From Candidatus Kaiserbacteria bacterium (GTDB taxonomy: Bacteria > Patescibacteriota > Minisyncoccia > Phycocordibacterales > UBA2100): DNA of 64,000 nt. This document shows positions 13,298-49,280 of this stretch, piece after piece. The stretch lies in NCBI GenBank assembly GCA_016432285.1, contig CP066682.1:666274-730273 (forward strand), read 5' to 3'. The notes under the pieces were generated by a model. The model did not search any database. It was not told where the DNA came from and saw only the letters and a program-made list of their open reading frames with translations. The first letter of the stretch is position 1; every line of letters starts with the position of its first letter. The position numbers and the translations under genes are program-made.

Positions 13298-13328
13298 TAT
13301 GGACATCCCTTGTCCATATTTTCTTCAT
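13298..13328. repeat. palindromic repeat family copy A (TATGGACAtccctTGTCCATA + TTTTCTTCAT)
   Basis: Occupies nearly all of the 45-nt gap between convergent trxB and purH stops; same consensus as copies at 27190, 36053, 49246. Confidence 0.7.
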
Positions 13329-13330
13329 CT

Positions 13331-14302
13331 TTAGTGGCGGAAGTGGCGGACGCCGGTGAAGACCATAGCCATACCGTGCTCGTTGGCGGCGTCGATTGAA
13401 TCTTGATCCTTCACGGAGCCGCCGGGCTGGATGATCGCCGTGACGCCCGCTTCGTGGGCGGCGTCGACCGAATCGCGAAACGGAAAGAATGCGTCGGATG
13501 CCATCACCGATCCCTTGAGCGAGAGGTTGGCATCGGCTGCCTTGATCGCGGCGATCTTTGCGGAGTACACGCGGCTCATCTGCCCCGCGCCCACGCCGAC
13601 CGTTTGGCCCTTCTTGGCATACACGATTGCATTGGATTTGACATGCTTCACGAGGGTGAAGGCGAAGATGAGATCGGCGAGCTCCTCCGGCGTCGGCTCG
13701 CGCTTCGTGACGGTTTTCGTTTGCTCGAATGTCGTACCATCGGCGCTCTGTACGAGAAAGCCGCCGGCGATGGTCCGCGCCGTAAGCCGCTTCTTCCGCG
13801 GATCCGGCATGGAGCCCGTGAGTACCACGCGCACGTTGGGCTTGGAGGCAAGAATCGCGAGCGCCTCGTCTTCGGCCGAAGGCGCGATCACGACTTCGAG
13901 GAAGATCTTTACGAGCTCCGAGGCGAGGGCTGCCGTGAGCTTCGAGTTGGCGGCTACGATGCCGCCGAAGGCTGAGACCGGGTCGCACGCGAGCGCTTTG
14001 AGGTAGGCGTCGTACAAATTCTCCCCGAGCGCGACACCGCAAGGATTGGTGTGCTTCACGATCACGATCGCGGGCTCGTCGAACTCAGCCACGCACTCAA
14101 AGGCCGCATCGGCATCGAGGAGGTTGTTGTAGGAAAGCTCCTTGCCTTGGATTTTCTTGCCCGTAGCGATGCCGGGCCGATCCGGATCAAGCGGATTTTT
14201 GTAGAGCGCCGCGCTCTGGTGGGGGTTCTCTCCGTAGCGGAGGATCTCGGATCTCTCAAGCTCCACATGGAGCTCTTCCGGCAGCTCTTCGTGATCCGTC
14301 AT
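13331..14302 (-). CDS. purH: AICAR transformylase (PurH C-terminal AICARFT domain only; no IMP cyclohydrolase/MGS domain)
   Basis: 323 aa matching PurH residues ~200-530 ([26 protein letters not shown]); only 240 bp of non-coding DNA upstream, so no room for the MGS-like domain. Confidence 0.8.
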
Positions 14303-14541
14303 CGCCGCATTTTACTGTATTTTAAAGCGTAAGCGAGTGGGGCGTGGCGTCAATGAGGGTCTTCGCGCAGGCGCGTAGGCGCCGAGCGGGTGAGGCGCGA
14401 ATACCTGGAGCGCCGCAAGACCTTTTGTGACATTTTCGTGCGTAGCGAAGAAAATGTCCAAAAGGTGTACCGCTCCCGTAGGGAGCGCACAGCGAGCACG
14501 CTGCGACGCGACCCGAACGATGCCATGCCTCCGAGCGAGTT

Positions 14542-15021
14542 CTATTCTGTTACGACCACGGTGCCCGTGATCGACGGATTCGAGTGATTGTGGTACCTCC
14601 ACGTCCCCATCTGGTTGAAGGTGAAATCCCACAGCTCGCCCGGGATCAGGCCGCGGCACGCGTCGAAAGCGCTGCCAAGGCAGTCGGAAGCGGTTTTCTC
14701 GGGATACACGCTGTGCGTGGGGTGCACCGCGGAAGCGGGCCAGACGTTTTTATCAGACGTATTGTTCCAGCGCACGGTTTCGCCTTTCTTGATCGTTACC
14801 GTTGAGGGAGTGAACGCGGTACCGTCGAATGCGACCGAGGCCGCGAAATTATCTTCCGATCCGGCGCCCGGCTCATCGCCAGTTGTCGAGCCTATGGTGC
14901 CCGTGCTGGTGCCGGTCGTCGTACCGGTGGTGTCGGCAGGAGTCTGCGTGCTCTGCCACCAGAGATACCCACCGCCAAGTACGACCACGATCACGATTGC
15001 CCACAAAAGATTTCGTTGCAT
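14542..15021 (-). CDS. membrane-anchored cupredoxin-like protein with Thr/Gly-rich linker
   Basis: N-terminal TM (LLWAIVIVVVLGGGYLWW), linker TTGTTTGTSTGTIGSTTG, C-terminal domain TVTIKKGETVRWNNTSD...H..H resembling plastocyanin/amicyanin-type cupredoxins. Confidence 0.5.
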   Translation of the reverse strand: MQRNLLWAIVIVVVLGGGYLWWQSTQTPADTTGTTTGTSTGTIGSTTGDEPGAGSEDNFAASVAFDGTAFTPSTVTIKKGETVRWNNTSDKNVWPASAVHPTHSVYPEKTASDCLGSAFDACRGLIPGELWDFTFNQMGTWRYHNHSNPSITGTVVVTE

Positions 15022-15083
15022 AAAAAAATAGCTACCGAATAACGCGCGTCAGTATATCACGCAGCCCGGAGATCGAATGAAGT

Positions 15084-15713
15084 TTATTTCCCCTGCTTCG
15101 AGAGGAAAGCCGCCCCGTGCCCCACGTCGGTGTTGACCGGGATGCCGCCTTTGCACAAATCGCATTCCTCCGCGGGCCAGGAGTCGAGGTCCAGGTGCAC
15201 GAGCGTCTCGAAGCGGGGTGGATTCCCCACGGCCTGTTTGCTCACCTCGCCGCGGTTGCAGAGCACCACCACGCCCACCACGTGCGCTCCCGCGGCCTGC
15301 GCCGCCTCCACCACCTTCCTCACGGACCCGCCGGTCGTCGTGAGATCTTCCACCACGAGCACTTTTTTGCCCGCGATCAGTTTGTCGTAGCCACGCTTGA
15401 TGATGAAGCCGCCCTGTCCGTCTTTGTCGGCGTACACGCTGAAAACGTCGCGGCCCTCGATTTCGCCCATGTGGTAGGCGGTCCACTGCGAGAGGATCGC
15501 GGCGCCAATGGCGGGTCCGATCACAGCCTCGACGCCCTCGCCCTTGAAGCGCTCGGCCATCTCTCTGCACACCTGCGAGGTCTCACGCGGGTACGCGTAC
15601 ATCGCGTCTTTCAGAATGTACGAATCGCTGTGCCGGCCGGAGGTGAAGACGAAGTGCCCGGCGCGGAACGCGCCGACTTTTTGGAGGAGGTCGAGTACTT
15701 CGGCTTCGGTCAT
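15084..15713 (-). CDS. pyrE: orotate phosphoribosyltransferase
   Basis: PRPP-binding motif KKVLVVEDLTTTGGS, 209 aa, adjacent to pyrF. Confidence 0.9.
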   Translation of the reverse strand: MTEAEVLDLLQKVGAFRAGHFVFTSGRHSDSYILKDAMYAYPRETSQVCREMAERFKGEGVEAVIGPAIGAAILSQWTAYHMGEIEGRDVFSVYADKDGQGGFIIKRGYDKLIAGKKVLVVEDLTTTGGSVRKVVEAAQAAGAHVVGVVVLCNRGEVSKQAVGNPPRFETLVHLDLDSWPAEECDLCKGGIPVNTDVGHGAAFLSKQGK

Positions 15714-15723
15714 GGTGGGGAGA

Positions 15724-16554
15724 TTATACCGCTTTCGTTATCGCGTCGTGAAGCTCTTGTGCCCGCGCACGGGCCGCGTCGGCAAAATCCTTTTCGCGCG
15801 AGGCAAAGATGATCGTGCGTGAGGCGTTGACCATGAGCCCCTTCTTGCGACTATCGAGCCCGTACTTCACGGTCTTTTCCAGGTCGCCGTTCTGCGCGCC
15901 CACGCCCGCCACGAGGATGGGCATGTCGCCCACGATCGCGCGCACCTCCTTGAGCTGTTGGGGGTACGTGGCACCCACCATGACGCAGCAGTTCTCATTG
16001 CCGTTCCACTCGTGCGAGACGAGATGCGCGATCTTTTGATAGAGCGGCTGGCCTTCCACGATAAGCTCCTGCACCTCCGCCGCGCCCGGATTCGAGGTGT
16101 GGGAGAGCACGATCACGCCCTTGTCGACGTACTCGAAAAACGGTAGCAGCGATTCCTTGCCGAGGTACGGGTGTACCGTGATCGCGTCGGCGCGCAGGTA
16201 TTCAAAAGCGGAGAGCGCGTACTGCACGTTGGTGTTGCCGATGTCGCCGCGCTTGGCGTCGAGAATCACCGGAATCTCCGGGTTGATCTCGATGATGTAC
16301 GCCATCGTCTCCCGCAGGGCTGCCATTCCTTGGTCGCCGTGAGATTCGTAGAAAGCGATGTTGGGCTTGTAGGAGCACACGAGGTCCTTGGTGGCGTCGA
16401 TGATCGCCCGGTTGAAGGCGACGATGGTGCGCTCGATGGTCGAGCCGCGGATCGATTCGGGGAGTTTGGTGGCGTCGACGTCGAGCCCGATGCAGAGAAA
16501 CTTGCCTTCGGCCCAGCGGGCTTCGAGCATCTGTCGGAAATTCCGAGCAATCAT
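15724..16554 (-). CDS. pyrF: orotidine 5'-phosphate decarboxylase (276 aa, long type)
   Basis: Internal ATG at 16554 (MIARNFRQMLEARWAEGKFLCIGLDVD...) of track ORF 15724..16989; LDAKRGDIGNT motif; the upstream 145 codons of the track ORF overlap other genes and are Arg-rich. Confidence 0.85.
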   Translation of the reverse strand: MIARNFRQMLEARWAEGKFLCIGLDVDATKLPESIRGSTIERTIVAFNRAIIDATKDLVCSYKPNIAFYESHGDQGMAALRETMAYIIEINPEIPVILDAKRGDIGNTNVQYALSAFEYLRADAITVHPYLGKESLLPFFEYVDKGVIVLSHTSNPGAAEVQELIVEGQPLYQKIAHLVSHEWNGNENCCVMVGATYPQQLKEVRAIVGDMPILVAGVGAQNGDLEKTVKYGLDSRKKGLMVNASRTIIFASREKDFADAARARAQELHDAITKAV

Positions 16555-16628
16555 TAGGCACCATCCTATCAGAAAAATGAACGCGGCGGAATCGAGAGAT
16601 TCCGCCGCGCAGCCTCGGTCGCGGTGCT

Positions 16629-16790
16629 TCAAGAGCGAACACCGAAGTGGGACATGGGCGTGCCACCGTTGCGGCAGCAGATGACGGTCTGCCCGATCCT
16701 CAGGAAGCCATCCTTGTCCCGCCGGTAATGCTGCTTCCGGCGGCTGGAACGGGGCTTGCGGACCGGGGTCTTTTTGGTGCGCTGAGTCAT
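16629..16790 (-). CDS. small basic protein, hypothetical (53 aa; MTQRTKKTPVRKPRSSRRKQHYRRDKDGFLRIGQTVICCRNGGTPMSHFGVRS)
   Basis: ATG at 16790; very basic N-terminus and CC..H tail; could be a ribosomal-like or nucleic-acid-binding peptide but no confident family. Confidence 0.35.
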   Translation of the reverse strand: MTQRTKKTPVRKPRSSRRKQHYRRDKDGFLRIGQTVICCRNGGTPMSHFGVRS

Positions 16791-16886
16791 ATTGCTCTCC
16801 CTTGGAGACACTGTGGTTGCATAGACCTCTATACAACCTGATGTCTCCAAAAGATGAGGGTCGGCGAATCCGCAAAGATTCGCCGA

Positions 16887-17102
16887 CTACTCGCGTGACC
16901 AAATCGGGATAAACACATCCCACCCGAGGATGACTGTCGTCTCCTCGAGACCTTGCGCGGCAAGCACCTGTAGGCCCACTTTTTTGCATTCATCGTCGCA
17001 AAAGAAGTGCGGTCTGCGAGTGCCTCCGCTTTTCGGCCGCACCCATGTCGTGCTTTCGGCCTGCCAGTTGCAAATTTCGCAGTGCATCGTTTTCCCTCTC
17101 AA
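16887..17102 (-). CDS. small zinc-ribbon protein (TRASH/FCS-like C-x2-C-x23-C-x3-C)
   Basis: MHCEICNWQAESTTWVRPKSGGTRRPHFFCDDECKKVGL...; likely start at MHCEIC (17087); hairpin 16860-16887 right after the stop. Confidence 0.4.
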   Translation of the reverse strand: MRGKTMHCEICNWQAESTTWVRPKSGGTRRPHFFCDDECKKVGLQVLAAQGLEETTVILGWDVFIPIWSRE

Positions 17103-17121
17103 AGATCAGAAAGATCAAACA

Positions 17122-17146
17122 AAAGCCCTCCTTGCGGAGGGCTTTT
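17122..17146 (-). terminator. rho-independent terminator downstream of aroK (minus orientation)
   Basis: AAAGCCCTCC-ttgc-GGAGGGCTTT; on the minus strand followed by TTTTGTTTGATCTTTCTGATCTTT. Confidence 0.6.
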
Positions 17147-17263
17147 GTCTGAGTGTCTCGGGAGCTAGGCAGTCAGGCAAAAGACCTCCGCGCGGGAGGA
17201 CATCATCGCCATCATCATCGCCTTCGAATACATACCGGAAGTGTAATCGGCCGGGCTGTTTCG

Positions 17264-17788
17264 TCAAGCGTGCGCCGCCTCTTCCATATCCAAAAAACCA
17301 AAGATTTTTTTGAGCGTGGCTTCCGCATCTTCGCCGATGTCAACCACGTGGTGAGCGTACTTCTCGTAGAGCACAGCACGCTTGTCGTACAGTTCGCGGA
17401 AAGATTGGCCCTTGATGCCGATGATCCGGCCCATACGCTCGGGAGAGTCGCCGATCCGCTTTTGGATCGTTTCGAAGGGCACGCGCAGGTATACGATGCG
17501 GGAGATCTTCCCGAGATGATCCATCGCCTCCGGCTCATACACGCTGCTGCCGCCCGGAGAGAAAACGTGCGCGTCTCTGCCGTTCGTCGCTTCGATGATC
17601 GCTTTGCCCTCGACGTCGATAAATCGTTCATCGCCGAGCTCTTCGACTATTTTCTCGAGCTCTTTGCCATACTGGTTTTCGAGATACGTATCAATGTCGA
17701 GAAACTCATAACCGAGCCGCTCCGCAAGCCGCCTCCCCACGTGGCTTTTACCGGCGCCCGCCATGCCGATCAGGGTGAGGTTGGCCAT
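17264..17788 (-). CDS. aroK: shikimate kinase
   Basis: Walker A LIGMAGAGKSHVGRRLA, 174 aa. Confidence 0.9.
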   Translation of the reverse strand: MANLTLIGMAGAGKSHVGRRLAERLGYEFLDIDTYLENQYGKELEKIVEELGDERFIDVEGKAIIEATNGRDAHVFSPGGSSVYEPEAMDHLGKISRIVYLRVPFETIQKRIGDSPERMGRIIGIKGQSFRELYDKRAVLYEKYAHHVVDIGEDAEATLKKIFGFLDMEEAAHA

Positions 17789-17790
17789 AT

Positions 17791-18965: not shown

Positions 18966-19006
18966 ACTCTAGCATCCGTGCGGACGCGCGATGATAAAAT
19001 GCGGCG

Positions 19007-22176: not shown

Positions 22177-22226
22177 TTAGGAATTATAACCGCGAATGCA
22201 TGACTTGGATGGACAATGCACGCTCG

Positions 22227-25599: not shown

Positions 25600-26490
25600 T
25601 TAACTGTGCAGCCAAATATAGAGGTCCCTAAAAACCATCTCGGCCCTGCCATTGCGCCTCACAATTTCTGCGAGCCTTTCACCGATGCCACGCTGCGCTG
25701 CCTCCGGGAGCCGCTCCCAGTCGGTGCGCAAAATAAACGATAGTAGCAACTTTCCGTCTCGATTAGGACTGAACGCGCCGTCCTGAAAACAGGAACTTAC
25801 GTCCGTGTGAGCATTGACGATCTCTGATTGATTTTCAATATTTAACTTTGCAAGCTCCGCTACGATTTCCTCCCCTGGCAATTCCGGCGCAGGCTGGGCA
25901 GTATGTTTATGTAGCTCTGCGAGCAGCTCATACCTGTCGCTTGTTGAGGAATAGATTGTTATCAGACCGACGCCGTTCGTATCCAGCGAATTGGCGAATT
26001 TCTGCAAGGTATTTGTTTCCTTCGGTGTATTCCTCCAATCCTGAATGTAGTACCAAACATGAGAGGACATTGAGAAATCCGAAAGTGGTGGATCGTGGGA
26101 CGGATCTTCAAACGGTATCACTTGGTAATCTGAAACAATGTCTGACAATCCCGCCGTGATTGCATTCGTATTAAATTCTGATGCCATTGTTTGAGAAACG
26201 TCCTCGCAAGAAATTGAGATGTTATCTTTTGTGCCCCGCTCCGCGATAAAGGATTTAAGCAGGGGTAATTCCAACCCGCCGTTCCCAGCGCCCATTACAT
26301 ATATGCGAAATAGTTGTTCTGAATTGCGTAGCTTGCTCCAAGCAGCGGGCGCCATTCGTTGAATGCCACTTAGTGTGGCGTCGAGTTGCACCTCCTTCTG
26401 ATCCGTGTTGCGGAGAAACACGGCAAATCGCTCTCTTGCTGCATTAAACGCTCCAGTACGCACCGCTTCTCCAGTCGACATCGTTTCCAT
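25600..26490 (-). CDS. class I SAM-dependent methyltransferase-like protein (low-GC, probably acquired)
   Basis: Motif I IYVMGAGNGGLELPLL followed by acidic ISCED; likely start METMSTGE at 26490; gene GC about 48%; divergent from the alkA-like gene. Confidence 0.55.
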   Translation of the reverse strand: METMSTGEAVRTGAFNAARERFAVFLRNTDQKEVQLDATLSGIQRMAPAAWSKLRNSEQLFRIYVMGAGNGGLELPLLKSFIAERGTKDNISISCEDVSQTMASEFNTNAITAGLSDIVSDYQVIPFEDPSHDPPLSDFSMSSHVWYYIQDWRNTPKETNTLQKFANSLDTNGVGLITIYSSTSDRYELLAELHKHTAQPAPELPGEEIVAELAKLNIENQSEIVNAHTDVSSCFQDGAFSPNRDGKLLLSFILRTDWERLPEAAQRGIGERLAEIVRRNGRAEMVFRDLYIWLHS

Positions 26491-26566
26491 CCTACAGGCA
26501 TCAAATATCAGACGCCAGCATTGTTTTATCGAATCCTGTTCTCGGTACAATGGGCTCACCGAGCGC

Positions 26567-27187
26567 ATGACGAACAATCTTCGAAAATCGATTTTGATCT
26601 TGAAGCGCGACCCGCGGTTCGCGCCGATCGTGCGAAAGTACGGTAAGCCCGATCTCACGCGCTACTTCGGCGGCATCGGGATCTTTCCGGCGCTGCTGCG
26701 CTCAATCGTGTACCAGCAGCTCTCGGGCCACGCGGCGCGCGCGATCCTCGCGCGCGTACTCGTGCTCTTTCCACGCGGGAAGCCAACGCCGCGCCGCCTG
26801 ATCAAGCTCCCCGCGGGAAAGCTCCGGGCCGCCGGCCTCTCCGTGCAGAAGATTTCGTACGTGCGTGATCTCGCGCACAAGTGCCTCGACGGCACGATCG
26901 ACGAGAAGCAATTCCCGACGATGAGCAGCGAGGAGATTGTGCAACACCTCACGCAGGTGCGCGGCGTCGGGCAGTGGTCCGCGCACATGGTGCTCATCTT
27001 TACCCTGCACCGGCTCGACATTTTGCCCACGGGAGATCTTGGTATCCGCAAGGGCTTCCAGATTCTCTACAAACTACGCACACTCCCGGACAAAAAGAAA
27101 ATGGAGAGTCTGGCGCGCCCGTGGCACGCGCACGCTTCGATCGCGAGCTGGTATCTCTGGCAGATCGCGGACGAAAATAAAAAGTGA
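26567..27187 (+). CDS. DNA-3-methyladenine glycosylase II / HhH-GPD family base-excision glycosylase (AlkA-like)
   Basis: Internal ATG at 26567 (MTNNLRKSILILKRDPRFAPIVRKYG...); HhH-GPD hallmark VRGVGQWSAHMVL...ILPTGDLGIRKG with catalytic Asp. Confidence 0.75.
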   Translation: MTNNLRKSILILKRDPRFAPIVRKYGKPDLTRYFGGIGIFPALLRSIVYQQLSGHAARAILARVLVLFPRGKPTPRRLIKLPAGKLRAAGLSVQKISYVRDLAHKCLDGTIDEKQFPTMSSEEIVQHLTQVRGVGQWSAHMVLIFTLHRLDILPTGDLGIRKGFQILYKLRTLPDKKKMESLARPWHAHASIASWYLWQIADENKK

Positions 27188-27189
27188 AG

Positions 27190-27223
27190 ATGAAGAAAAT
27201 ATAGACAAGGGATGTCCATATTT
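27190..27223. repeat. palindromic repeat family copy B (ATGAAGAAAATATAGACAagggATGTCCATATTT)
   Basis: Directly after the alkA-like stop; opposite orientation relative to copy A. Confidence 0.7.
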
Positions 27224-27230
27224 GGAAAAA

Positions 27231-27256
27231 GCCCCGCCGAGGCGGGACTTTTTTAA
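27231..27256. terminator. bidirectional terminator (CCCGCC-ga-GGCGGG flanked by A5 and T6)
   Basis: AAAAAGCCCCGCCGAGGCGGGACTTTTTTAAT. Confidence 0.65.
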
Positions 27257-27627: not shown

Positions 27628-28638
27628 ATGAATCACGTTCTCTCTATCGGCGACCGGCGCCATCTTCCATTTTTGACTGATATCGACGGAAGTCGTGCCG
27701 ACGCCGGGGAATACGCCTGTTCGTATCGCAAGGAGTGTGATGTGATGCCCGTATTTACCGCCTCCCCCTACGGGGTGACGGTGGGGTTCTTCGTCTACTG
27801 CGGCGGCGAGCGCAAGCTCGTGCACAGTTGCTCGCAGACGGCATGCATCATTGGCGGCTGGCGCGCGTTCCGACTCCTGGAGCGCGTCGAGAGCGTCAAT
27901 TACGGCACTCCGCTGGCGGCACTCCGTGTCGCCGACGATAGCGTGGTGGGCGAGATCACTGCCTCGGCCGAACGCTACTTCTCGTCGCCAGCCGCTTACC
28001 GGAGCGCGTGCTCCGATATTCGCGAAGCGGTGCCAGACCTGGATACTCTCGCCAACATGTTGCAGATCGTGATCCGGACCAAGGCTACAGTCCGGCTCGA
28101 CGGCATCATGCGCGTATTCGGGAATAACCCGCCGAGTGAAATCCGGCCCCTGCTCCAGAGCGTGAATCCGATCTCGGGGCAGACCGACCTGGTCTGCGAG
28201 GACTGGGTCCCGTTTGCCGCGCAGATCCGAAAGCGCGGCAGGCACTATAAGGGGTTCCAGGTAGCCGCGATCGGTTATTCGCGGCCGGAAACGCCGGGCG
28301 GGATGCCGTGGGTGTGTGCGGGAGCAAACATGCAGTTCACGGAATACTCGCAACCGATGTGCGCGGAGGATCGGGTCTTGGAGCAGGCTGAGCACGACGA
28401 AATCACGCTCGACCGGCTCCTGATCTACGGCGTGCCGCGCAAGCGCGACACGACGAAGACGCTCCACCCGTGCAGCGAGCGCTGCCTTGCGCGTTTGCAC
28501 GATAAGTACTTGCGCAAGAAGGCGGTGAAGGCGTCGACAATCCTTACGTGCGTGCACGCGGAGACGGGGTTCACGGAGGAGTTCACGCTCCGTGAATACT
28601 TCGCGATGAACGGTGTCATCACTTCCCCGTGGGGGTGA
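27628..28638 (+). CDS. cytidine/deoxycytidylate-deaminase-fold protein: ~230-aa Cys-rich N-terminal domain of unknown function + C-terminal CDA-like zinc deaminase domain (336 aa)
   Basis: C-terminal GANMQFTEYSQPMCAE...(35 aa)...PCSERC parallels the CDA signature G-x-N-x-E-N-x-x-Y...C/H-A-E...P-C-x-x-C (as in B. subtilis Cdd CAE...PCGAC); antisense 377-aa ORF is Arg-rich junk. Confidence 0.55.
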   Translation: MNHVLSIGDRRHLPFLTDIDGSRADAGEYACSYRKECDVMPVFTASPYGVTVGFFVYCGGERKLVHSCSQTACIIGGWRAFRLLERVESVNYGTPLAALRVADDSVVGEITASAERYFSSPAAYRSACSDIREAVPDLDTLANMLQIVIRTKATVRLDGIMRVFGNNPPSEIRPLLQSVNPISGQTDLVCEDWVPFAAQIRKRGRHYKGFQVAAIGYSRPETPGGMPWVCAGANMQFTEYSQPMCAEDRVLEQAEHDEITLDRLLIYGVPRKRDTTKTLHPCSERCLARLHDKYLRKKAVKASTILTCVHAETGFTEEFTLREYFAMNGVITSPWG

Positions 28639-28697: not shown

Positions 28698-29246
28698 CTA
28701 CTGCGCCAGGAAGCTGCGATTGACCGCCGTTCCCCCCGCGGTCACGATCGCGTCGAGCTTGATGTCGAATTTCTTGTCGCCGTCGTCGACGTAGATGATC
28801 GCGTAGTAAATCTTGCCCTTTTCGGTGGCTCGCAAAAGCGACACCGTGCCATTCGCCACTGCCGTGCCGTCGAAGCGCGACGCGCCCAAGACCCAGCCAT
28901 TGGCGTCCTTGATTGCGATCCACGAAGGCTTCACGAGTGTCGCGCTCGCGATGATTACGCTGCCACCCGCAGGCTGGTCGTTGACCGAAAGCGACTCGCC
29001 GCTCGAGGCGGTCGTCATGCTCGCGGTGGAGCTTGTGCCGCCCGAAGTGCTGCCCGTAGCCGTGCCATTTGTCGAACCGGTCGCCGTGCCCGTGGCAGTG
29101 CCGGTCGACGTGCCAGTCGTTGTCCCCGTGTTTTCAGGAGCCGGAGCTTGCGGGTTGCGGCTCCAGATCCACCAGCCACCGATAATAACGACGAGCGCGC
29201 CGACCCCGATGAGGATCCACTGCGTCGTCTGATTTTTCATGTCCAT
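28698..29246 (-). CDS. membrane-anchored extracellular protein with long Thr/Gly linker and C-terminal beta-rich domain (about 182 aa)
   Basis: Likely start MDMKNQ/MKNQ (29246/29240); TM ILIGVGALVVIIGGWWIW, linker TGTTTGTSTGTATGTATGSTNGTATGSTSGG; shares anchor-linker design with 14542..15021. Confidence 0.55.
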   Translation of the reverse strand: MDMKNQTTQWILIGVGALVVIIGGWWIWSRNPQAPAPENTGTTTGTSTGTATGTATGSTNGTATGSTSGGTSSTASMTTASSGESLSVNDQPAGGSVIIASATLVKPSWIAIKDANGWVLGASRFDGTAVANGTVSLLRATEKGKIYYAIIYVDDGDKKFDIKLDAIVTAGGTAVNRSFLAQ

Positions 29247-34223: not shown

Positions 34224-36422
34224 ATGGAAGAACTTTCGAAGGCACCGAAAGCATTTCTAAAACCCTACAATCCGGCGGAGTACGAGCCCGAAATGCTCGA
34301 CGCCTGGGAAAAGAGCGGCTACGCCAACCCCGACGTCTGCGTCGAAAAGGGCGTCACGAAGAAAGACGCTCCCACCTACTCGATCGTCCTCCCCCCGCCA
34401 AATGTGACGGGCACCTTGCACATGGGACACGCGGCGATGCTCGCGATCGAGGACATCCTGATCCGCTACCACCGCATGCGCGGCTTCCGCACGCTCTGGC
34501 TCCCAGGCACCGACAGCGCGGCGATCGCGACACAGTCCAAGGTAGAAGCGGACATCTATAAGAAAGAAAAGAAAACGAGGCACGACCTCGGTCGAGAGGA
34601 GCTGATGCGTCGCATCGACGCCTTCGTCGAGGAGAGCAAAGCTACGATCATCAACCAAACAAAAAAAATGGGCTCGAGCCTCGACTGGAGCCGCTACGCC
34701 TACACCATGGACGAGAAACGCTACGCCGCTGTCATGGAGGCGTTCGTGCGCATGTACGACGCTGGCCTCATCTACCGGGGGGACCGGATCGTCAACTGGG
34801 ATCCGAAATCGCAGACCACGGTGGCCGACGACGAGATCGAGTACGTGGAGCAAAAAGACCCCTTCTATCACTTTCAGTACGGCCCCTTCGTGATCGCGAC
34901 GGTGCGTCCGGAGACCAAATTTGGCGACAAGTGGGTCGTGATGCACCCGGACGACGAGCGATACGCGCAGTATGCGCACGGGCAGCAGCTCGAGCTCGAA
35001 TGGATCAACGGCCCCATCACGGCGACGATCATCAAAGATCCGAGTATCGATATGTCGTTCGGCTCGGGCGCCATGACGATCACGCCCGCGCACGATGCGC
35101 ACGACTTCGAGATCGCCAAAAAGTACGGCCTCGAAATCGCGCCGGTGATCGACGAGCGCGGGATACTCCTCCCAATTGCCGGCGAGTTTGCGGGCCAGCA
35201 CATCAAAAAAGCGCGGGCAGCCGTGGTCGAGAAATTGAAAAGTAAGGGCCTCGTGGTGCAGGTGGACGAACAGTACATGCACAACGTGGCCACCAACTAC
35301 CGCGGCGGCGGTGTGATCGAGCCGCAGATCAAGAAGCAGTGGTTTATCGACGTCAACAAGAGCGCGCAATTCCCCGACGGCAAGACGCGCACGCTGAAAG
35401 AGTGGATGCGCGAGGCGGTGCAGTCGGGTGCGACGAAGATCATGCCCGAGCGCTTCGAAAAGATTTATTACCACTGGATCGACAACCTCCGCGACTGGAA
35501 CATCTCTCGGCAAATCTGGTTTGGCCACCGCATTCCCGCGTGGTTCCGGGGCGAGGAGATCAAAGTCCAAATCGATCCGCCAGCTGATGGAGCCGCCGCA
35601 GGCTGGGAGCAAGACCCGGACGTGCTCGACACGTGGTTCTCCTCGGGCTTGTGGACCTTCTCCACCTTGGGATGGCCCGAAGATACCGAGGATCTCAAAA
35701 TCTACCATCCGACTGCCGTGCTCGAAACGGGGTACGACATTCTCTTTTTCTGGGTCGCCCGCATGATCTTGATGAGCGGATTCTTGCGTGGCGAGGTCCC
35801 CTTCAAGAGCGTGTACCTGCACGGCCTCGTGCGCGACGGGAAGGGCCGCAAGATGTCGAAATCGCTCGGCAACATCATCGATCCCCTCACCATGATCGAA
35901 AAGTACGGCGCCGACGCCGCGCGCCTCTCTCTTGTCATCGGCGCGCAGATGGGCAACGACGTGAAGCTCTCCGAGGATCGCGTGCGCGGCTACAAGCACT
36001 TTGCCAACAAAGTATGGAACATCGCCCGCTTCGTACTCGAGAATTACGATGCGAAAAAAAATGGACATTCGATGTCCATACTTCCTTCGGATCAAAAACT
36101 GGTAGACGAGGCGATGATCGTGGCCAAGGAGGTGTCGGACAACATCGATAAGTTCCGCCTCGATCTCGCGGCTGATCAGGTGTACCACTTCGTGTGGGAT
36201 CGTTTTGCCGCAGAAATACTCGAAGAATCGAAGCCGATCTTGAAGGGCGTGGACGAAGCTGCCAAAGCTTCGCGAGCCGTGGCGCTCCACCAAATACTCG
36301 TGATCTCGCTGAAGCTCCTCCACCCCTTTATGCCGTTTGTGACGGAGCGCATCTGGAAGGAGCTTCCACAGAAGGACGCCGATCTTCTCATGGTCGCTCC
36401 GTGGCCGAGTACAATTGGCTAA
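34224..36422 (+). CDS. valS: valine--tRNA ligase, short form (732 aa, no C-terminal coiled-coil)
   Basis: PPPNVTGTLHMGHA HIGH motif, KMSKSLGN, editing domain; contains palindromic repeat copy D in frame at 36053-36085. Confidence 0.9.
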   Translation: MEELSKAPKAFLKPYNPAEYEPEMLDAWEKSGYANPDVCVEKGVTKKDAPTYSIVLPPPNVTGTLHMGHAAMLAIEDILIRYHRMRGFRTLWLPGTDSAAIATQSKVEADIYKKEKKTRHDLGREELMRRIDAFVEESKATIINQTKKMGSSLDWSRYAYTMDEKRYAAVMEAFVRMYDAGLIYRGDRIVNWDPKSQTTVADDEIEYVEQKDPFYHFQYGPFVIATVRPETKFGDKWVVMHPDDERYAQYAHGQQLELEWINGPITATIIKDPSIDMSFGSGAMTITPAHDAHDFEIAKKYGLEIAPVIDERGILLPIAGEFAGQHIKKARAAVVEKLKSKGLVVQVDEQYMHNVATNYRGGGVIEPQIKKQWFIDVNKSAQFPDGKTRTLKEWMREAVQSGATKIMPERFEKIYYHWIDNLRDWNISRQIWFGHRIPAWFRGEEIKVQIDPPADGAAAGWEQDPDVLDTWFSSGLWTFSTLGWPEDTEDLKIYHPTAVLETGYDILFFWVARMILMSGFLRGEVPFKSVYLHGLVRDGKGRKMSKSLGNIIDPLTMIEKYGADAARLSLVIGAQMGNDVKLSEDRVRGYKHFANKVWNIARFVLENYDAKKNGHSMSILPSDQKLVDEAMIVAKEVSDNIDKFRLDLAADQVYHFVWDRFAAEILEESKPILKGVDEAAKASRAVALHQILVISLKLLHPFMPFVTERIWKELPQKDADLLMVAPWPSTIG
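36053..36085. repeat. palindromic repeat family copy D inside the valS reading frame (AATGGACATTCGATGTCCATAC)
   Basis: 20-nt core ATGGACATTCGATGTCCATA identical to reverse complement of copy C; encodes ...AKKNGHSMSILPS... in a variable loop after the conserved RFVLEN motif. Confidence 0.65.
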
Positions 36423-39518: not shown

Positions 39519-39607
39519 ATTAATCCCCACGCGGGGAATTGACAAAATATGGCTTAGGAATAGGATATTTCGATCGCGCCACTCACGAAACTTGAAAGGG
39601 GGAAAGA

Positions 39608-40366: not shown

Positions 40367-40413
40367 CGCGTCACGAACCTGAAGCCCGGCTACGGTCGGG
40401 CTTCTTTCTTGCG

Positions 40414-41895: not shown

Positions 41896-41896
41896 A

Positions 41897-43345: not shown

Positions 43346-43346
43346 A

Positions 43347-43994: not shown

Positions 43995-44905
43995 ACGGCG
44001 CCGGAGAGCTTCGAAAGAATAATGAGTGCCGCCCCGCCGAGCGCGAAGAGGAAGGCGAGCGCCATGTACTCCTGCATGCGGTAGAAGCGCATTTTGACGA
44101 TGGTCGATTCGACGAAGGCGACGAGAAACGCGGCGAGGATGAGCTTGCCGAGAAACAGCAGGGCGAGCACCGTGCCACTTGCGGCAAAGCTCGGTAAAAG
44201 GAGCGATACGAAAAGCGTGCCGAGTACGGTGAGTTTGATCGCCGAGGCGTACTCGAGGAGCGCGAGGTACGGCCCGGAGTATTCGAGCATCATGGCTTCG
44301 TGCACCATCGTAAGCTCCAGGTGCGTCGCCGGATTGTCGACCGGATAACGGGCGTTTTCAGCGAGCACCACAAAGAAGAGCGCGATGAGCGTGACGGCCG
44401 TGAGCACGTGCGAGCCCGCGGTGGCGCTCGTGAAGTGCGCGATGATGTCGCCCATCCCGAAGGAGCCGGCAAAGAGGGCGAGCGAAGCGAATACGATAAA
44501 AAGCGGCGGCTCCACGAGCGCGATGAGGCTCATTTCCCTACTCGATCCCATGTTGCCGAAGGTGCTCGCCGTATCCATGCCGCCGAGTACGAGGAAAACG
44601 GAGCCAAGCGCGAGCACTCCTGCGATCAGGAAGACGTTGCCGTACGTGCCGGCGATGGGCACCGCGGGCACGAGCGCAGCGAGTGCGATCGTGCTCCCCA
44701 ATACCACAAACGGCACGGTGTGGAAGACCCACGAGCTGTATCTCGTGATCGTCATGTCTTTCCGCAAAAGTGAGAGGAGCGCCCAGTACGGCTGGAAGAT
44801 CGACGCGCCACGCCGATTCTGGAAGAGCGCTTTAAACTTTCGCACGAGACCGACCGTAAGCGGCGAGGCGAGCAGTATGAGTAGTGTCGGCAGCAGAATG
44901 GTCAT
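43991..44905 (-). CDS. NuoH-like (HyfC/HycD-like) membrane subunit, 304 aa
   Basis: Internal ATG at 44905 (MTILLPTLLILLASPLTVGLVRKF...) overlapping upstream gene by ATGA; NuoH-type topology; upstream 123 codons of the track ORF overlap HyfB and are Arg/His-rich. Confidence 0.8.
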   Translation of the reverse strand: MTILLPTLLILLASPLTVGLVRKFKALFQNRRGASIFQPYWALLSLLRKDMTITRYSSWVFHTVPFVVLGSTIALAALVPAVPIAGTYGNVFLIAGVLALGSVFLVLGGMDTASTFGNMGSSREMSLIALVEPPLFIVFASLALFAGSFGMGDIIAHFTSATAGSHVLTAVTLIALFFVVLAENARYPVDNPATHLELTMVHEAMMLEYSGPYLALLEYASAIKLTVLGTLFVSLLLPSFAASGTVLALLFLGKLILAAFLVAFVESTIVKMRFYRMQEYMALAFLFALGGAALIILSKLSGAV

Positions 44906-46869
44906 AGTGCGATGAAGAGCGTCAGGATAAGCGTGAGCAAAACGAGCAGCAGGTAGAACTGCACGACGCCGCTCTGGAGGCGCCTTACAGAGTGCGCCAC
45001 GCGCACGATTCCGTGCCCCAGGGGTTTGTAGAGCCAGACTTCCCAGATCGAATGGATCTGCCAATCGAGGTGCTTTTTGGTGACCCACGGATTGCTCGCG
45101 ACCACGGGGGTGGTAATGATCTCGCGGCGCGCCCCCAGGAGGGTGCGGAAGAAGAAGCGGATTGGAGCGGCAAATCCGGTGGAAGTGTACTGCATGCGCG
45201 GCGTGAGGGGCGCGCCGCAATCCCACGTATCGGTGATGCGGATTTTCGTTCGCAGCACGCGGGTGATCAGCCACAGCGCGAGTGCGGGAGCAGCGAGAAT
45301 GAGCGCGACGAGCGTGGGATCAATCCCCGCACCCGGCGCCACAACCACCTCCGCGCCAAAGAGCTTGCCTACGGGAATACCGGAAATGAGGGGAAACGCG
45401 ACGAGGCCGACGCCAAGAGAGAGGAGCGCGCAGATCGCGACGGGTGTGGCAAGGATCCATGAGAGCGCGCCTGCGTGCTCCGCCGCTTCCGTGCGTGCGC
45501 GTCCGAGAAAGACGAGGCTGAAGAATTTGACGAAGGCGAAAATCGCGAGTCCGCCGACGAGCGCGACCGACGAGAGCACGAGGAGTGCGGTAAAGCGCGA
45601 CGCCGGATCCCCCGCTCCGAGACCAAGCGCGAGTGCCTGCACGAGCGCCCACTCGCCGAAGAAGGTCCCCAAGGGCGGGAGCGCGGCCGCCGCGAGCGAA
45701 AGCGCGAGCACCACGCCCGAAAAGAGCGGCCACCTTCGCGCGAGTCCGCCGAGCGAATCAAGGTCGCGCGTATGCGTGGCGCTCTGGATCACGCCGGCAG
45801 CCATGAAGAGTCCCGACTTGAAGAGGAAGTGGTTGAGAATGTGGAGCATGACGAAAAGAGCAAAAAGCGGCGCGAGTGGCGCAAGAGCAGCGGTGCCGCT
45901 CGTAAGAAAGTAGAGCGCGATGCCCGCAAAGATGAGCCCCATGTTCTCGATGCTGCTCCACGCAAGGAGACGCTTCGCGTCGTTTTCGACCGCCGCGTGC
46001 AGCGCGCCAAAAAAAGCCGAGACGAGCCCGAGGAGGAGCACGACGAGCATCCACGGGAAAAGAAGACTGGGGAAAAACGTGAGCGACTGCAAGAAACCGA
46101 AGACCGCCACTTTCAGCATCACGCCCGAGAGGAGCGCCGATGAGCCGGAGGGCGCCTGCGGGTGCGCGTACGGAAGCCACTGGTGCAGGGGCACAAGGCC
46201 CGCCTTCGATCCGAATCCGGCAAAGAGGAGCGCGAACGCGAGCGAAAGCGGCAGCGCGCCGAGTGTCGCCGCCCCTTGCGCGAGCTCGGCCCACGAGAGC
46301 AGCGGATTGCCACCCGAGAGGATCAGGAGCCCGGCGGCGAGCGCGAGAAAACCGAGGTGCGTCATCACGAAGTACAAAAAGCCGGCGCGCAGCGAATCTT
46401 CCGTACGATCCGCGATCACGAGGAAATACGCGGCGATCGACATGAGCTCCCATGCCAAAAGAAACGTCAGTACCGAAGGCGCGAGCACCACCGCCTGCAT
46501 GCCGATCAAGAAGAGTGCCGAGGCGACGTTGAGCCACGGCAGCACGTAGATCTCCTTATATTTTGCGAGCGCCGCGATCGAGTAGAACGAGGTAAGCAGC
46601 ACGCCCGCATAGATGATCCCCAAAAATGGCACGCCAAGCGGCTGGAGGACACCGAGGCCGCCGATCTGTAACGAGGAAAGGGAGCCCGCAAACATCTCAA
46701 GCGCTAAAAGCGCGACTGCACCGAGCCCCACGAGCCCGGAGAGCGCAAAGAGCACTTGCGTGAGCGTATTGCTCCAGGAGACGCGCCGTAGAAGAAGCCC
46801 GAGGAGCGCGGCGAATGCGGGCGTCGCGAGGGCAAAGAGAAAAAGACGCGAGATGAGGAGGGGGTCCAT
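44902..46869 (-). CDS. NuoL-like (HyfB-like) antiporter-type membrane subunit, 655 aa
   Basis: Multiple TM with GLVPLHQWLPYAH motif. Confidence 0.85.
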   Translation of the reverse strand: MDPLLISRLFLFALATPAFAALLGLLLRRVSWSNTLTQVLFALSGLVGLGAVALLALEMFAGSLSSLQIGGLGVLQPLGVPFLGIIYAGVLLTSFYSIAALAKYKEIYVLPWLNVASALFLIGMQAVVLAPSVLTFLLAWELMSIAAYFLVIADRTEDSLRAGFLYFVMTHLGFLALAAGLLILSGGNPLLSWAELAQGAATLGALPLSLAFALLFAGFGSKAGLVPLHQWLPYAHPQAPSGSSALLSGVMLKVAVFGFLQSLTFFPSLLFPWMLVVLLLGLVSAFFGALHAAVENDAKRLLAWSSIENMGLIFAGIALYFLTSGTAALAPLAPLFALFVMLHILNHFLFKSGLFMAAGVIQSATHTRDLDSLGGLARRWPLFSGVVLALSLAAAALPPLGTFFGEWALVQALALGLGAGDPASRFTALLVLSSVALVGGLAIFAFVKFFSLVFLGRARTEAAEHAGALSWILATPVAICALLSLGVGLVAFPLISGIPVGKLFGAEVVVAPGAGIDPTLVALILAAPALALWLITRVLRTKIRITDTWDCGAPLTPRMQYTSTGFAAPIRFFFRTLLGARREIITTPVVASNPWVTKKHLDWQIHSIWEVWLYKPLGHGIVRVAHSVRRLQSGVVQFYLLLVLLTLILTLFIAL

Positions 46870-46870
46870 A

Positions 46871-47401
46871 CTAGGTGCGCGCTTTTTCGATCGCGGCGAG
46901 GAGCCCTTTCAAGATCTGTAGCGGCGAGGGCGGATCGCCGAAAATCTTCGCGTCAACCGGGATTACCTTCTCCACCGCACCCACCACAGCGTACGAGCCT
47001 GCCCAGATGCCTCCCGTGCATGCGCCGTCGCCCACGGCGATCACCATGCGCGGCTCGGGAGTCATGTCGTAGGCGGTCCGCAAAGCGTGCTCCATGTTGC
47101 GCGTGACGGGCCCAGAGACCGTGAGAATGTCGGCATGGCGCGGAGAGGCGACGAAGGAGAGGCCGAATCGCTCACTATCATGATAGGCGTTGCCGAGGGC
47201 GGTCATTTCGTACTCCTCCGCATTGCTTGATCCTGCGTCGACATGGCGAATCCGAAGCGAGCGGCCGCCGTAGAGCCGCGTGATCGCCCGTTTGAGATTT
47301 TCCCCCGTTACCTCGATGTCCGTGCTCCCCACTTGCGGCGCCTGCTCGGTTACCGTGCCCGTTTTAATGATTCTGGCAAGCAGGGAAAGCATATTTTGCA
47401 A
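46871..47401 (-). CDS. NuoB-like ([NiFe]-hydrogenase small-subunit-like) protein lacking Fe-S cluster cysteines
   Basis: Aligns to NuoB (ASPRHADILTVSGPVTRNM; MTPEPRMVIAVGDGACTGG) but CC->SS (AGSSNAEEYEM) and CPP->DPP (IFGDPP), leaving 1 of 4 cluster-N2 Cys; start TTG 47401 or ATG 47392. Confidence 0.75.
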   Translation of the reverse strand: MQNMLSLLARIIKTGTVTEQAPQVGSTDIEVTGENLKRAITRLYGGRSLRIRHVDAGSSNAEEYEMTALGNAYHDSERFGLSFVASPRHADILTVSGPVTRNMEHALRTAYDMTPEPRMVIAVGDGACTGGIWAGSYAVVGAVEKVIPVDAKIFGDPPSPLQILKGLLAAIEKART

Positions 47402-47503
47402 ATAATGCTGGGTACTCTACGCTCCGAATGCCCCCCTGTCCAGCGCGGTTTTTCGGCACGTACGTTCATTGCGTCATCAGCGCATCGACGGTATATAAGA
47501 TGA

Positions 47504-48094
47504 ATGAGAGAGGTGGCACTCGATCCGCCATACACGCCCCTCACGCAGCAGCGCATGTGCTGCGTTCCCTGTGCCGTGCAGTGGGTGCTCTTGCGGCGCG
47601 GACTCCCCATTTTTACGCAAGAGAAGATCGGCGAGGCGCTCGATCTCACCGTACCGCCCGTTCACAAGAAGCTCTTTTGCGAAGGGGTGATGGTGAGCAT
47701 TACGGAGCCTGCCCACGGATGGGGCTCGAAGACCGACGGCCACGACGCCCTCAACAAGTTTTTCAAGGAAAACCGCCTCCCCGTGCGCGCCAGGCACGTG
47801 AAGCACTCCGCACTCAAAAAGCCGGAGGATCTCATTGAGCGCAACATCAAAAAGGGCAACGATGTGATGTTTATCACCTTCATGGGAGTGATCGACAAAA
47901 AATACCGCTGGGGCCACGCGCTCGTCGTGAGCGCCTTGAAGCGCGAGAAGGAACCGGTCGTTACCGTGGGTGACCCGAATTTCGTGGCGCCAAAGTTCTA
48001 CGACCTTCCGCTCTCGCTGATCCTCAAAGGCATGAGTGCCCGCCACGGCAAGGCCGAGCGCGGCCTCTACATTTTTTCCACCGCGAAACGCTAA
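47504..48094 (+). CDS. hypothetical protein, possible papain-like (C39-like) cysteine peptidase fold
   Basis: QQRMCCVPCAVQW (Gln/Cys), RWGHALVVSAL (His in HxVVV context), GDPNF (Asp) in the order of the C39 catalytic residues; TATATAAG directly upstream of ATG. Confidence 0.35.
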   Translation: MREVALDPPYTPLTQQRMCCVPCAVQWVLLRRGLPIFTQEKIGEALDLTVPPVHKKLFCEGVMVSITEPAHGWGSKTDGHDALNKFFKENRLPVRARHVKHSALKKPEDLIERNIKKGNDVMFITFMGVIDKKYRWGHALVVSALKREKEPVVTVGDPNFVAPKFYDLPLSLILKGMSARHGKAERGLYIFSTAKR

Positions 48095-48105
48095 CACCGA
48101 TCCGC

Positions 48106-48390
48106 ATGCACACACTGTGGCGATACGCCTTTGTCGCACTCCTCCTCTTTTCGATCTTCCACCTCGGGCGCGATGTCCTGCAATACGCGGGCGTTGAAAA
48201 TATCTTCACGACCCTCCTTCACCGGAAGCTCGCGTGGTGCGACTGGTATTGCGACCCGCTGATCATTCCCTACGAAATTGCGACCATCGCGGGCGGCGCC
48301 TTCGTTTTATGGAGAGATCGCATTGGCATTGTGGGAGTGATTGCGCTCGGTTTTCCCCCGTTGCTGCTGATCGCTACGCTGCTGCCCTGA
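48106..48390 (+). CDS. small membrane protein, hypothetical (94 aa)
   Basis: Two or three hydrophobic helices; immediately downstream of 47504 gene. Confidence 0.4.
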   Translation: MHTLWRYAFVALLLFSIFHLGRDVLQYAGVENIFTTLLHRKLAWCDWYCDPLIIPYEIATIAGGAFVLWRDRIGIVGVIALGFPPLLLIATLLP

Positions 48391-48404
48391 CAGGGCAAGC
48401 ACTT

Positions 48405-48809
48405 TTACTGCTTCTGAACCTGAAAATCGGGATCGTTCTGCTCGCACTGGATCGTCCAGGTTTTCCAATCCGGTGACGCCGACATGTAGCTCGTGAGAGA
48501 GCCGTATGTCTCTTCACCATACGCCTCACCGGCCCACCCCTTTTCCTGCAATTTTTTCCAAATGGTCGTGGGCATCGTGTGATTGCGATCGCCGTGCCAG
48601 AGATCGTGGATGAACTGCCACTTTTGCGGCTGGGCAAAGGTGAAGGTGAAACTGATCTTATTGCCGTAATCAATAACGTCCGTTTTGACCACCTCTACAT
48701 GCTCCGGGGTGTTGGGTTTGATGCCTTCAAACTTCGGCATGCCCCACATGGTAGCACCCACCACCTTTTCCACATTCCCCTTTTGCGCCGCCCAGATGGG
48801 CGCTACCAT
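48405..48809 (-). CDS. hypothetical protein (134 aa, Trp-rich)
   Basis: Track ORF with diverse composition; GC about 53%, lower than core genes. Confidence 0.4.
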   Translation of the reverse strand: MVAPIWAAQKGNVEKVVGATMWGMPKFEGIKPNTPEHVEVVKTDVIDYGNKISFTFTFAQPQKWQFIHDLWHGDRNHTMPTTIWKKLQEKGWAGEAYGEETYGSLTSYMSASPDWKTWTIQCEQNDPDFQVQKQ

Positions 48810-48857
48810 CAGTGCAGGAGCGCTCAGTAAAGGGCGCTCTTATACGTGGAGGATTCC

Positions 48858-49154
48858 ATGGCCATCTTGCGACCCAACGAACATCTTCGGCTCCCTCCCG
48901 AAGCGATGAGCTTGGAGGGTGCCGGCATGGCGACGATCGTCGTTACCTACCCGCGGCTCGATCACCCGAAGATCCTACAGACCTTTGCCTGGCAGGAGAT
49001 CGATCTCTACCCGTGGTTCCCCGTCATGAACGCCTTTCTGTGCGATTGGATCGTCAACAAAGACTCCAAGCCGCAGTCGGCACGAGTGATGCACTCGCAG
49101 ATGCGGGGTTGGGCTGAGTTCAAGATGGTCGCCGGTGTCTTCCGCCTCCAGTGA
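48858..49154 (+). CDS. hypothetical protein (98 aa)
   Basis: ATG at 48858 (MAILRPNE...) with GGAGGA 7 nt upstream; track ORF starts at GTG 48846. Confidence 0.35.
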   Translation: MAILRPNEHLRLPPEAMSLEGAGMATIVVTYPRLDHPKILQTFAWQEIDLYPWFPVMNAFLCDWIVNKDSKPQSARVMHSQMRGWAEFKMVAGVFRLQ

Positions 49155-49245
49155 CCGCAACGCCCGACGGGAAGCCCAGCGCTCCCGCCGGGCTTTCCAT
49201 TTTGAGCCCCGATTTCCAAGGCTAAATATTGGAATTTCTAAATCA

Positions 49246-49280
49246 AATATGGACATCGAATGTCCATATTTTCTTCATTT
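49246..49280. repeat. palindromic repeat family copy C (ATATGGACATcgaATGTCCATAT + TTTCTTCATTTT)
   Basis: Perfect 10-nt arms; T-rich tail on plus strand. Confidence 0.7.

Follow-up and report, generated by a model that had tools for sequence, protein, structure and literature searches.

A REP/RAYT-like family of palindromic repeats, probably cognate to a Y1/HUH gene, in a Kaiserbacteria genome and related Patescibacteria

Introduction

REP/RAYT systems, in which repetitive extragenic palindromes (REPs) are paired with a REP-associated tyrosine transposase (RAYT), are known from the literature chiefly in Proteobacteria, with a few other phyla represented. One group of REPs already described consists of perfect palindromes (PMC8266576), and atypical REP classes without the tetranucleotide GT[AG]G were noted by Quentin et al. 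(PMC6006769). Here we describe a palindromic repeat that is present in four copies in a 64,000-nt stretch of a Candidatus Kaiserbacteria genome (assembly GCA_016432285.1, contig CP066682.1, positions 666,274 to 730,273 of the forward strand; hereafter the window, to which all coordinates without a locus name refer), and whose relatives flank a Y1/HUH gene in other Patescibacteria. With a probability of roughly 0.7, these repeats are interpreted as a REP/RAYT-like hairpin family that is cognate to this RAYT-like Y1/HUH gene, and not as purpose-built terminators.

The likeness to REP/RAYT systems (REPtrons; PMC6006769, PMC5581495, PMC8266576) lies in a Y1/HUH gene flanked by its own palindrome, usually in inverted arrangement, in co-variation of palindrome and protein between lineages, in the location of the Y1 gene in conserved chromosomal neighbourhoods, in dispersed solo palindromes, often at gene 3′ ends, and in the best fold match of the Y1 protein, which is TnpA-REP (4ER8). 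Two other kinds of element are also comparable. Rickettsia palindromic elements (RPEs; PMC10969869) are likewise in-frame palindromic repeats in unrelated housekeeping genes of a reduced-genome bacterium, where a peptide is added to the protein at surface positions that tolerate it, and IS200/IS605 elements and PATEs would share the Y1 transposase fold, hairpin ends and action on single-stranded DNA.

Results

Four copies of one palindrome in the window

All four copies listed in the original prediction are present, in the gene contexts given there. Copy 1 (13295..13331, minus strand; GTATGGACATCCCTTGTCCATATTTTCTTCATCTT) lies between convergent stops, those of a trxB-like gene (12362..13285, plus strand; TAG at 13283-13285) and of a purH-type AICARFT/IMPCHase gene (13331..14302, minus strand; TAA at 13331-13333), each 13 nt from the ATGGACA core. 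Copy 2 (27188..27223, plus strand, orientation opposite to copy 1; ATGAAGAAAATATAGACAAGGGATGTCCATATTT) starts 2 nt past the TGA stop of an HhH-GPD glycosylase gene (26405..27187, plus strand), and the next real gene beyond it is at 27628..28638 (plus strand). Copy 3 (49245..49282, minus strand; AAATATGGACATCGAATGTCCATATTTTCTTCAT), the best preserved, follows a Usg-like gene (48846..49154, plus strand) and precedes a DUF397 gene (49459..49725, plus strand). Copy 4 (36057..36083, plus strand; AAAAATGGACATTCGATGTCCATACTT) is inside valS (34224..36422, plus strand, 732 aa), the product of which is identical to QQG37781.1 (Candidatus Kaiserbacteria); a long minus-strand open reading frame (ORF) over this gene was rejected as a shadow ORF.

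The family core is a 27-nt near-perfect palindrome, AAATATGGACA-N5-TGTCCATATTT. Copy 1, read on the minus strand, is AAG-ATGAAGAAAAT-ATGGACA-AGGGA-TGTCCAT-ACGT and copy 2, on the plus strand, is AG-ATGAAGAAAAT-ATAGACA-AGGGA-TGTCCAT-ATTT, with one arm mismatched (TAGACA); the two match at 97% over 34 nt. Copies 2 and 3 match at 87% over 39 nt, copy 3 reading AAATATGGACAT-CGA-ATGTCCATATTT on the plus strand, followed by the tail TCTTCATTTTC. The 19-nt centre of copy 4 is identical, as reverse complement, to the centre of copy 3, and its outer arms are partly decayed (93% match in the repeat comparison). TGGACA-N3-7-TGTCCA is found three times in the window, the 23-nt palindrome four times (≤3 mismatches) and the arm plus tail TGTCCATATTTTCTTCAT three times (≤3 mismatches), against 0.01 expected in each case. 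The additional half-sites proposed at about 4062 and at 29238 are at chance level: a 10-mer with one mismatch has three matches outside the palindromes, where about one is expected, and none of the matches outside the four palindromes has a partner arm. An Rfam scan of the window returned three tRNAs only and no known RNA family at the repeats.

The one-sided tail TTTTCTTCAT is indeed conserved, in the three intergenic copies only, and ATGAAGAAAAT lies 5′ of the palindrome in the same three. ATGAAGAAAAT was also identified in two other genomes, in-frame in purD in one (L070) and providing the TGA stop of ahcY in the other (L102). The flank is no purpose-built U-tract; we read it as part of a sub-family unit that is present in L070 and L102 too, and the window copies as solo copies of this sub-family. 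The TGA of the flank is in frame with the stop of the upstream gene in copy 1 (TAA AGA TGA) and copy 2 (TGA AGA TGA). A small ORF starting in ATGAAGAAAAT (MKKIWT...) was considered and rejected, as its frames and stops vary: copy 1 reads through, copy 2 gives MKKI* and copy 3 a peptide of 11 aa.

The palindrome flanks a Y1 gene in related genomes

[quoted passage not shown] Target-site direct duplications, as found with MITEs, are absent from the flanks of the copies. An exact-pattern scan of one genome per species identified seven loci in five Patescibacteria metagenome-assembled genomes (43-56% GC), with the form GAAAATATGGACAC-GGC-GTGTCCATATTTTC; three further matches lacked the left arm and were discarded as chance. 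Scanning metagenomes with AAATATGGACA-N5-TGTCCATATTT gave 102 stretches, many with two copies 679-695 nt apart, and a scan of viral contigs gave no matches to palindrome or gene. Among 98 non-redundant copies of the ATAT type, the inner pair is C:G in 78, T:A in 16, T:G in 3 and T:C in 1.

At 22 loci (L005 and 21 others) a palindrome pair surrounds a gene of 214-225 aa with a Pfam Y1_Tnp domain (E 9e-9). The core of the 5′ copy begins 35-41 nt ahead of the Y1 ATG, and the 3′ copy lies 6-7 nt past the last Y1 codon, so that the Y1 stop (TAA or TGA) falls in the A-rich foot of the palindrome. Of 21 non-redundant upstream regions, 17 have a -10-like hexamer (TATAAT, TATACT, TAGAAT and others) 15-18 nt past TGGACA, the hexamer of the arm, and in 13 of the 16 ATAT-type regions it is 6-7 nt ahead of the start codon. 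From this spacing the upstream palindrome supplies the -35 box (TGGACA) of the Y1 promoter, and the Y1 transcript is probably leaderless. Most Y1-carrying contigs among the listed homologues are 0.7-4 kb in length, a size that points to breaks in metagenome assembly at the palindromes on either side of the gene.

The loop centre (G or C) is inverted between the two flanking copies in 10 of 14 cases selected by palindrome. Seven further Y1 loci were fetched by exact protein identity and not by DNA motif: a palindrome pair of the same geometry surrounds the Y1 gene in all seven, with the loops inverted in six. The outer arms at these protein-selected loci are lineage-specific (ATAT-, TTTA-, GTTA-, ATTA- or TGAT-GGACA[CT]-NNN-[GA]TGTCC, and once CGACAC...GTGTCG). 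Over 23 palindromes of this kind, 94.3% of cells are paired and eight of 13 pairs change on both sides, with a covariation score of 0.449, compared to 0.125 for shuffled alignments (none of 500 reaches the observed score) and ≤0.135 when partners are slid. These compensatory, lineage-specific arms indicate that palindrome and Y1 protein co-evolve.

The Y1 protein and its neighbourhoods

The Y1 protein has the HUH motif in the form HYH, a tyrosine that is invariant within YIHLNPL, and a C-terminal helical extension of ~80 aa. A sequence/profile search of the PDB gave marginal matches only (ISDra2, E 0.4). The AlphaFold2 model (pLDDT 86, pTM 0.85) has its best fold match in 4ER8, E. coli TnpA-REP with a REP hairpin (E 8e-5, 180 columns), followed by the ISDra2 and IS608 transposases. 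Identity to the L005 reference ranges from 52 to 71% across loci. Of 8,000 candidates that were scored, 6,791 were homologues with E ≤ 1e-10, and the named taxa of the listed homologues are Kaiserbacteria, Paceibacteria/Paceibacterota, Parcubacteria and Patescibacteria, with a few labelled just “bacterium”.

The gene was found in four neighbourhoods (arrowheads give orientation): tyrS - zincin - msrA < Y1 > ... lysS; gatB - obg < Y1 > secA (L005, L113 and L120); rnc - smc > Y1 > < RNase R - rpsP - KH - trmD ... rpoBC (L117, L118 and L121); and mreB < Y1 > < aminoacyl-tRNA synthetase. Several of these are common to genomes unlike each other in GC content and in the variant of the palindrome, and conserved neighbourhoods are the pattern described for RAYTs rather than for insertion sequences (PMC5581495). 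Shared neighbourhoods and the absence from viral contigs are consistent with vertical inheritance of the Y1 gene.

A transposase-like gene, which the original prediction advised looking for, is thus present between identical palindromes in relatives and absent from the window. Of the neighbour genes listed above, msrA, lysS, tyrS, gatB, obg and secA were not found in the window, which carries the smc ... rpsP-KH-trmD-rpoB-rpoC block. A Y1 gene may lie elsewhere in the window's genome; if so, it would have flanking palindromes of the ATATGGACAT type bearing ATGAAGAAAAT. Next to copy 3, GGCTCGAAAATGA is loosely like the ...KLE* end of Y1 (GCTCGAATAA), a resemblance too weak to be claimed as what is left of a Y1 3′ end.

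Copies inside genes and at stop codons

The ATAT-type unit of 27 nt equals nine codons and is the only variant free of stops in all six frames. By gene calls that are crude at the relatives' loci, 26 of 65 solo copies (~40%) lie inside ORFs, where they are read in all three frames (KYGHGVSIF, IWTRRVHI, NMDTPCPY). Ten host ORFs were confirmed as real genes, encoding AlaRS, LeuRS, UvrB, FGAM synthase (PurL), RecJ, ValRS, Dus, NAD(P)HX dehydratase, a reverse transcriptase and a beta-lactamase-fold protein. At the palindrome in LeuRS there is a clean indel, orthologues being shorter by 7-9 aa at exactly this point. At gene ends, a stop codon lies 2-3 nt from the ATGGACA core (TAA-AT-ATGGACA) in 22 of the 71 long ORFs that end near a copy, and about half of these 22 are non-Y1 genes.

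In the window, copy 4 is in-frame in valS, where it contributes the peptide KNGHSMSIL to the anticodon-binding domain, within a loop that is hypervariable. The valS gene of L112 has a palindrome at the same position with a symmetric change (ACAC...GTGT for ACAT...ATGT). Comparison with 120 ValRS homologues, chosen regardless of the palindrome and therefore free of exact-match bias, revealed the palindrome peptide at this position in three other Kaiserbacteria-like proteins (KYGHGVSIF, KYGHPMSIF and IYGHAMSIN). The loop, which follows FVLEN (window 36030-36110), has 29-44 residues; in some homologues it holds an apparently decayed form of the palindrome peptide, and in most its sequence is unrelated. 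A single ancestral insertion in valS was rejected as a specific account: bearers are scattered on a poorly resolved neighbour-joining tree, on which ancient insertion with decay and hot-spot recurrence are indistinguishable. From these sequences, the valS copy appears to have entered a tolerant loop either long ago or repeatedly and to be decaying in some lineages, behaviour more in keeping with selfish or neutral DNA than with a function under conservation.

Besides KYGHxxSI, the ValRS loop contains other recurrent palindrome-like peptides (KGRTLESPKGPTL, GQTFADPQGLTF, TLQSKV), scattered over the tree, which suggests repeated hairpin insertions of several families. The ValRS of the window is short (732 aa), and the valS stop abuts the ATG of a PrsW-family protease gene.

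A hot spot is seen in uvrB. In L037 the ATATGGACA palindrome (3681-3707) follows IVRPIVSG, and in L116 (uvrB at 4829-6922, minus strand) a different, 42-nt double palindrome, ACCAAGGACGGTCCTTGGTAATTACCAAGGACCGTCCTTGGT, occupies exactly the insertion position of L037. It encodes PRTVLGNYQGPSLV, and a 72-nt stretch containing it has a predicted RNA fold of -41.6 kcal/mol; at this one site, two in-frame hairpin families are represented.

Compound palindromes and other features

In 14 of 98 copies, against ~0.1 expected by chance, the palindrome extends by 5-11 more complementary bases of copy-specific sequence. Among them are solo copies in L002, L009, L017, L024, L038, L039, L047 and L081, and their outer sequences are inverted, not direct; insertion into pre-existing hairpins and inverted duplication of the flanks are possible causes. 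L031 (1103-1284) and L101 (183-364) each have three hairpins within ~180 nt, one ATATGGACA between two variants, AAAACGGACATTCGATGTCCGTTTT. Inside the RNase HII gene rnhB of L117 (4194..4808, plus strand) is an inverted doublet, GGACATCCGATGTCC-cag-GGACATCGGATGTCC (4491-4523), which resembles a REPIN-like pair of the inner palindrome.

Elsewhere in the window, a perfect 38-nt GC-rich palindrome (CGCCCCGCATCGCTTTTTGCAAAAAGCGATGCGGGGCG; 9355-9392) lies just past an S21-like gene and falls within codons 1-22 of the ybeY ORF as called mechanically; ybeY probably starts further downstream, and the palindrome is probably an ordinary terminator. The purH-type ORF beside copy 1 (13331-14302) has only 323 aa, aligned to AICARFT/IMPCHase from profile position 62, and there is no MGS-like N-terminal domain in the same ORF. 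A direct repeat with a 12-nt period (GTGCCNGTNGNN...), at 29050-29132 and 14897-14931, is probably a low-complexity coding stretch.

Discussion

A translatable hairpin and its putative enzyme

The preferred reading, of a REP/RAYT-like hairpin family with a cognate Y1 gene, draws on the family membership of the four window copies, the architecture of the Y1 loci, the covariation, the in-frame copies and the synteny described above. Under it, the palindrome would fold into a 12-bp hairpin on single-stranded DNA, and the Y1 enzyme would recognise this hairpin and cut or rejoin it, as E. coli TnpA-REP does with REPs. Such activity could seed solo copies elsewhere in the genome, and the Y1 protein may repress its own promoter via the upstream copy. 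A unit of nine codons with no stop in any of six frames allows copies to survive beside stop codons and in-frame in tolerant loops of essential proteins. A broader proposal, that the 27-nt hairpin of a vertically inherited, RAYT-like enzyme of Patescibacteria has been shaped to be translatable, colonising both stop-proximal DNA and loops of essential proteins (ValRS, LeuRS, AlaRS, UvrB, RecJ, PurL), and that, with at least one further hairpin family observed at the same loop positions, hairpin insertion would be a general source of loop variation in these reduced genomes, is advanced tentatively, at somewhat less than even odds.

Binding and spreading of the hairpin by the Y1 protein would follow by analogy with the chemistry of TnpA-REP and IS200/IS605 enzymes (PMC8266576, PMC6006769). 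Several observations weigh against a REP/RAYT-like family. The symmetric covariation fits a dimeric binder of double-stranded DNA equally well. The sole NCBIfam match of the protein is REP_Tyr_transpos, at 44 bits where the RAYT cut-off is 80, and a GT[AG]G guide tetranucleotide was not found in the flank profile of 103 non-redundant copies, which has only an A-rich foot. A tblastn search of the 64-kb window (E ≤ 10) gave no Y1 gene or remnant, the smc-rpsP slot of the window (63345-63366, 62998-63009) holds a YbjQ-family gene only, with no Y1 gene and no palindrome, and the Y1 gene of the window's own genome was not among the 120 best matches of the homologue searches. Copies are sparse, both in the window (four in 64 kb, ~1 per 16 kb, well below classical REPs) and in other genomes (0-2 solo copies per 20 kb). 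The solo copies were collected by exact palindrome match, from which conservation at orthologous sites is not inferable, and among the ValRS homologues most lineages are without an intact copy, with a diverged palindrome-like sequence in a few.

Alternative explanations

The description of the intergenic copies as dedicated terminator modules does not account for the family. Predicted RNA hairpins have energies of -11.5 kcal/mol (plus strand) and -9.2 kcal/mol (minus strand) for copy 1, -12.7 and -14.0 kcal/mol for copy 3, -10.9 kcal/mol for copy 4 and, for copy 2, only -6.0 kcal/mol on the plus strand and -10.7 kcal/mol on the minus strand; a permissive terminator scan of the plus strand matched copies 1 and 3 (3 G-C pairs) and left copy 2 undetected. 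Copies 1 and 3 fit a stem plus T-run on the sense strand of the upstream gene (-11.5 to -12.7 kcal/mol), the flanks are symmetric A-tracts and T-tracts, and a terminating or mRNA-stabilising effect of these two copies may exist as a secondary or incidental one. Termination nevertheless fails as the primary nature of the repeat, because copy 2 is misoriented and redundant (its T-rich side faces the end of an upstream gene, and directly 3′ of it is a canonical GC-rich terminator, the bidirectional hairpin AAGCCCCGCCGAGGCGGGACTTTTTT at 27229..27255, both strands, which is not a family member), because copy 4 is coding and many relatives are intragenic, and because the 27-nt sequence is identical over genomes of 43-60% GC, an identity that terminators do not need. 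With merely 3 G-C pairs per stem as well, dedicated or independently evolved intrinsic terminators are highly improbable. Double-stranded operators bound by a dimeric regulator of transcription, which might be the Y1 protein, would explain the perfect two-fold symmetry, the symmetric covariation and the overlap of the Y1-upstream copy with the -35 box. The operator function also contained in the original prediction is retained for that copy, in other genomes, and abandoned for the window copies, for which a sigma-70 promoter was rejected as none is followed by a -10 box. A regulon is distinctly unlikely when the window copies lie past stop codons or in valS, 40% of solo copies elsewhere are intragenic, many copies overlap stop codons and the neighbour genes have no common function.

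The unit of hairpin, Y1 gene and hairpin could instead be an autonomous IS200-like element, with the solo palindromes as its leftover ends or PATE/MITE-like derivatives and not the REPs of a domesticated gene. The layout is like that of a minimal IS200, the IS608 and ISDra2 transposases are among the fold matches too, at least four distinct neighbourhoods hold the gene in different lineages, and the contigs that bear it are in many cases very short, as would be expected of assembly breaks at repeats. We consider this unlikely: the neighbourhood is the same in L005, L113 and L120, and again in L117, L118 and L121, despite differing GC content and palindrome variant; one and the same perfect palindrome stands at either end, in place of left and right ends that are imperfect and distinct; the palindrome is kept at protein identities of 52-71% to the L005 reference, where active IS copies would be near-identical; and viral contigs have no matches. 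Patescibacteria are thought to depend on DNA uptake, and a palindrome conserved across species, inside and outside genes and at times in inverted pairs could serve in natural transformation as a recognition sequence of the uptake type. The uptake sequences known so far have a density of about one per kb, compared to ~1 per 16 kb here, the arms vary between lineages and the fixed association with the Y1 gene would be unexplained, so this explanation is barely credible.

Comparison with known systems

For the REP/RAYT-like family favoured here, a full-text search found no literature linking RAYTs or REPs to Patescibacteria or the candidate phyla radiation, and the host phylum is itself a difference from described REP/RAYT systems; the family may represent a new lineage for them. 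It also differs in that its palindromes are without the GT[AG]G guide and are fully symmetric except for the loop centre, that copy number is low, and that the 5′ copy doubles as a -35 box, probably of a leaderless transcript. The Y1 protein, with its ~80-aa C-terminal extension, is under the NCBIfam RAYT cut-off. REPs are extragenic by definition, and here the in-frame intragenic share is large: one of the four window copies, together with the 26 of 65 solo copies elsewhere.

From IS200/IS605 elements, the Y1 loci differ in having identical perfect palindromes at both ends instead of distinct left and right ends, in the lack of tnpB, in a protein of 214 aa compared to about 130-150 aa, and in their syntenic genomic location. 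For annotation, KYGHGVSIF, IWTRRVHI and NMDTPCPY in Patescibacteria proteins are to be taken as footprints of a DNA element and not as protein motifs; for assembly, the palindromes probably cause breaks.

RPEs are ~100-150 bp long and have no identified cognate enzyme (PMC10969869). The element described here is 27 nt (nine codons), five times shorter, is read in all three frames and is linked to a Y1 gene, and its sequence and host are different. If the broader proposal above is correct, hairpin insertion of this kind would resemble that of RPEs and would be the first such case in which a cognate enzyme can be identified. The mechanism by which in-frame palindromes spread becomes open to test with a single small protein and an oligonucleotide of 27 nt. 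The family joins a REPtron-like architecture with the in-frame colonisation of essential genes that has so far been emblematic of RPEs.

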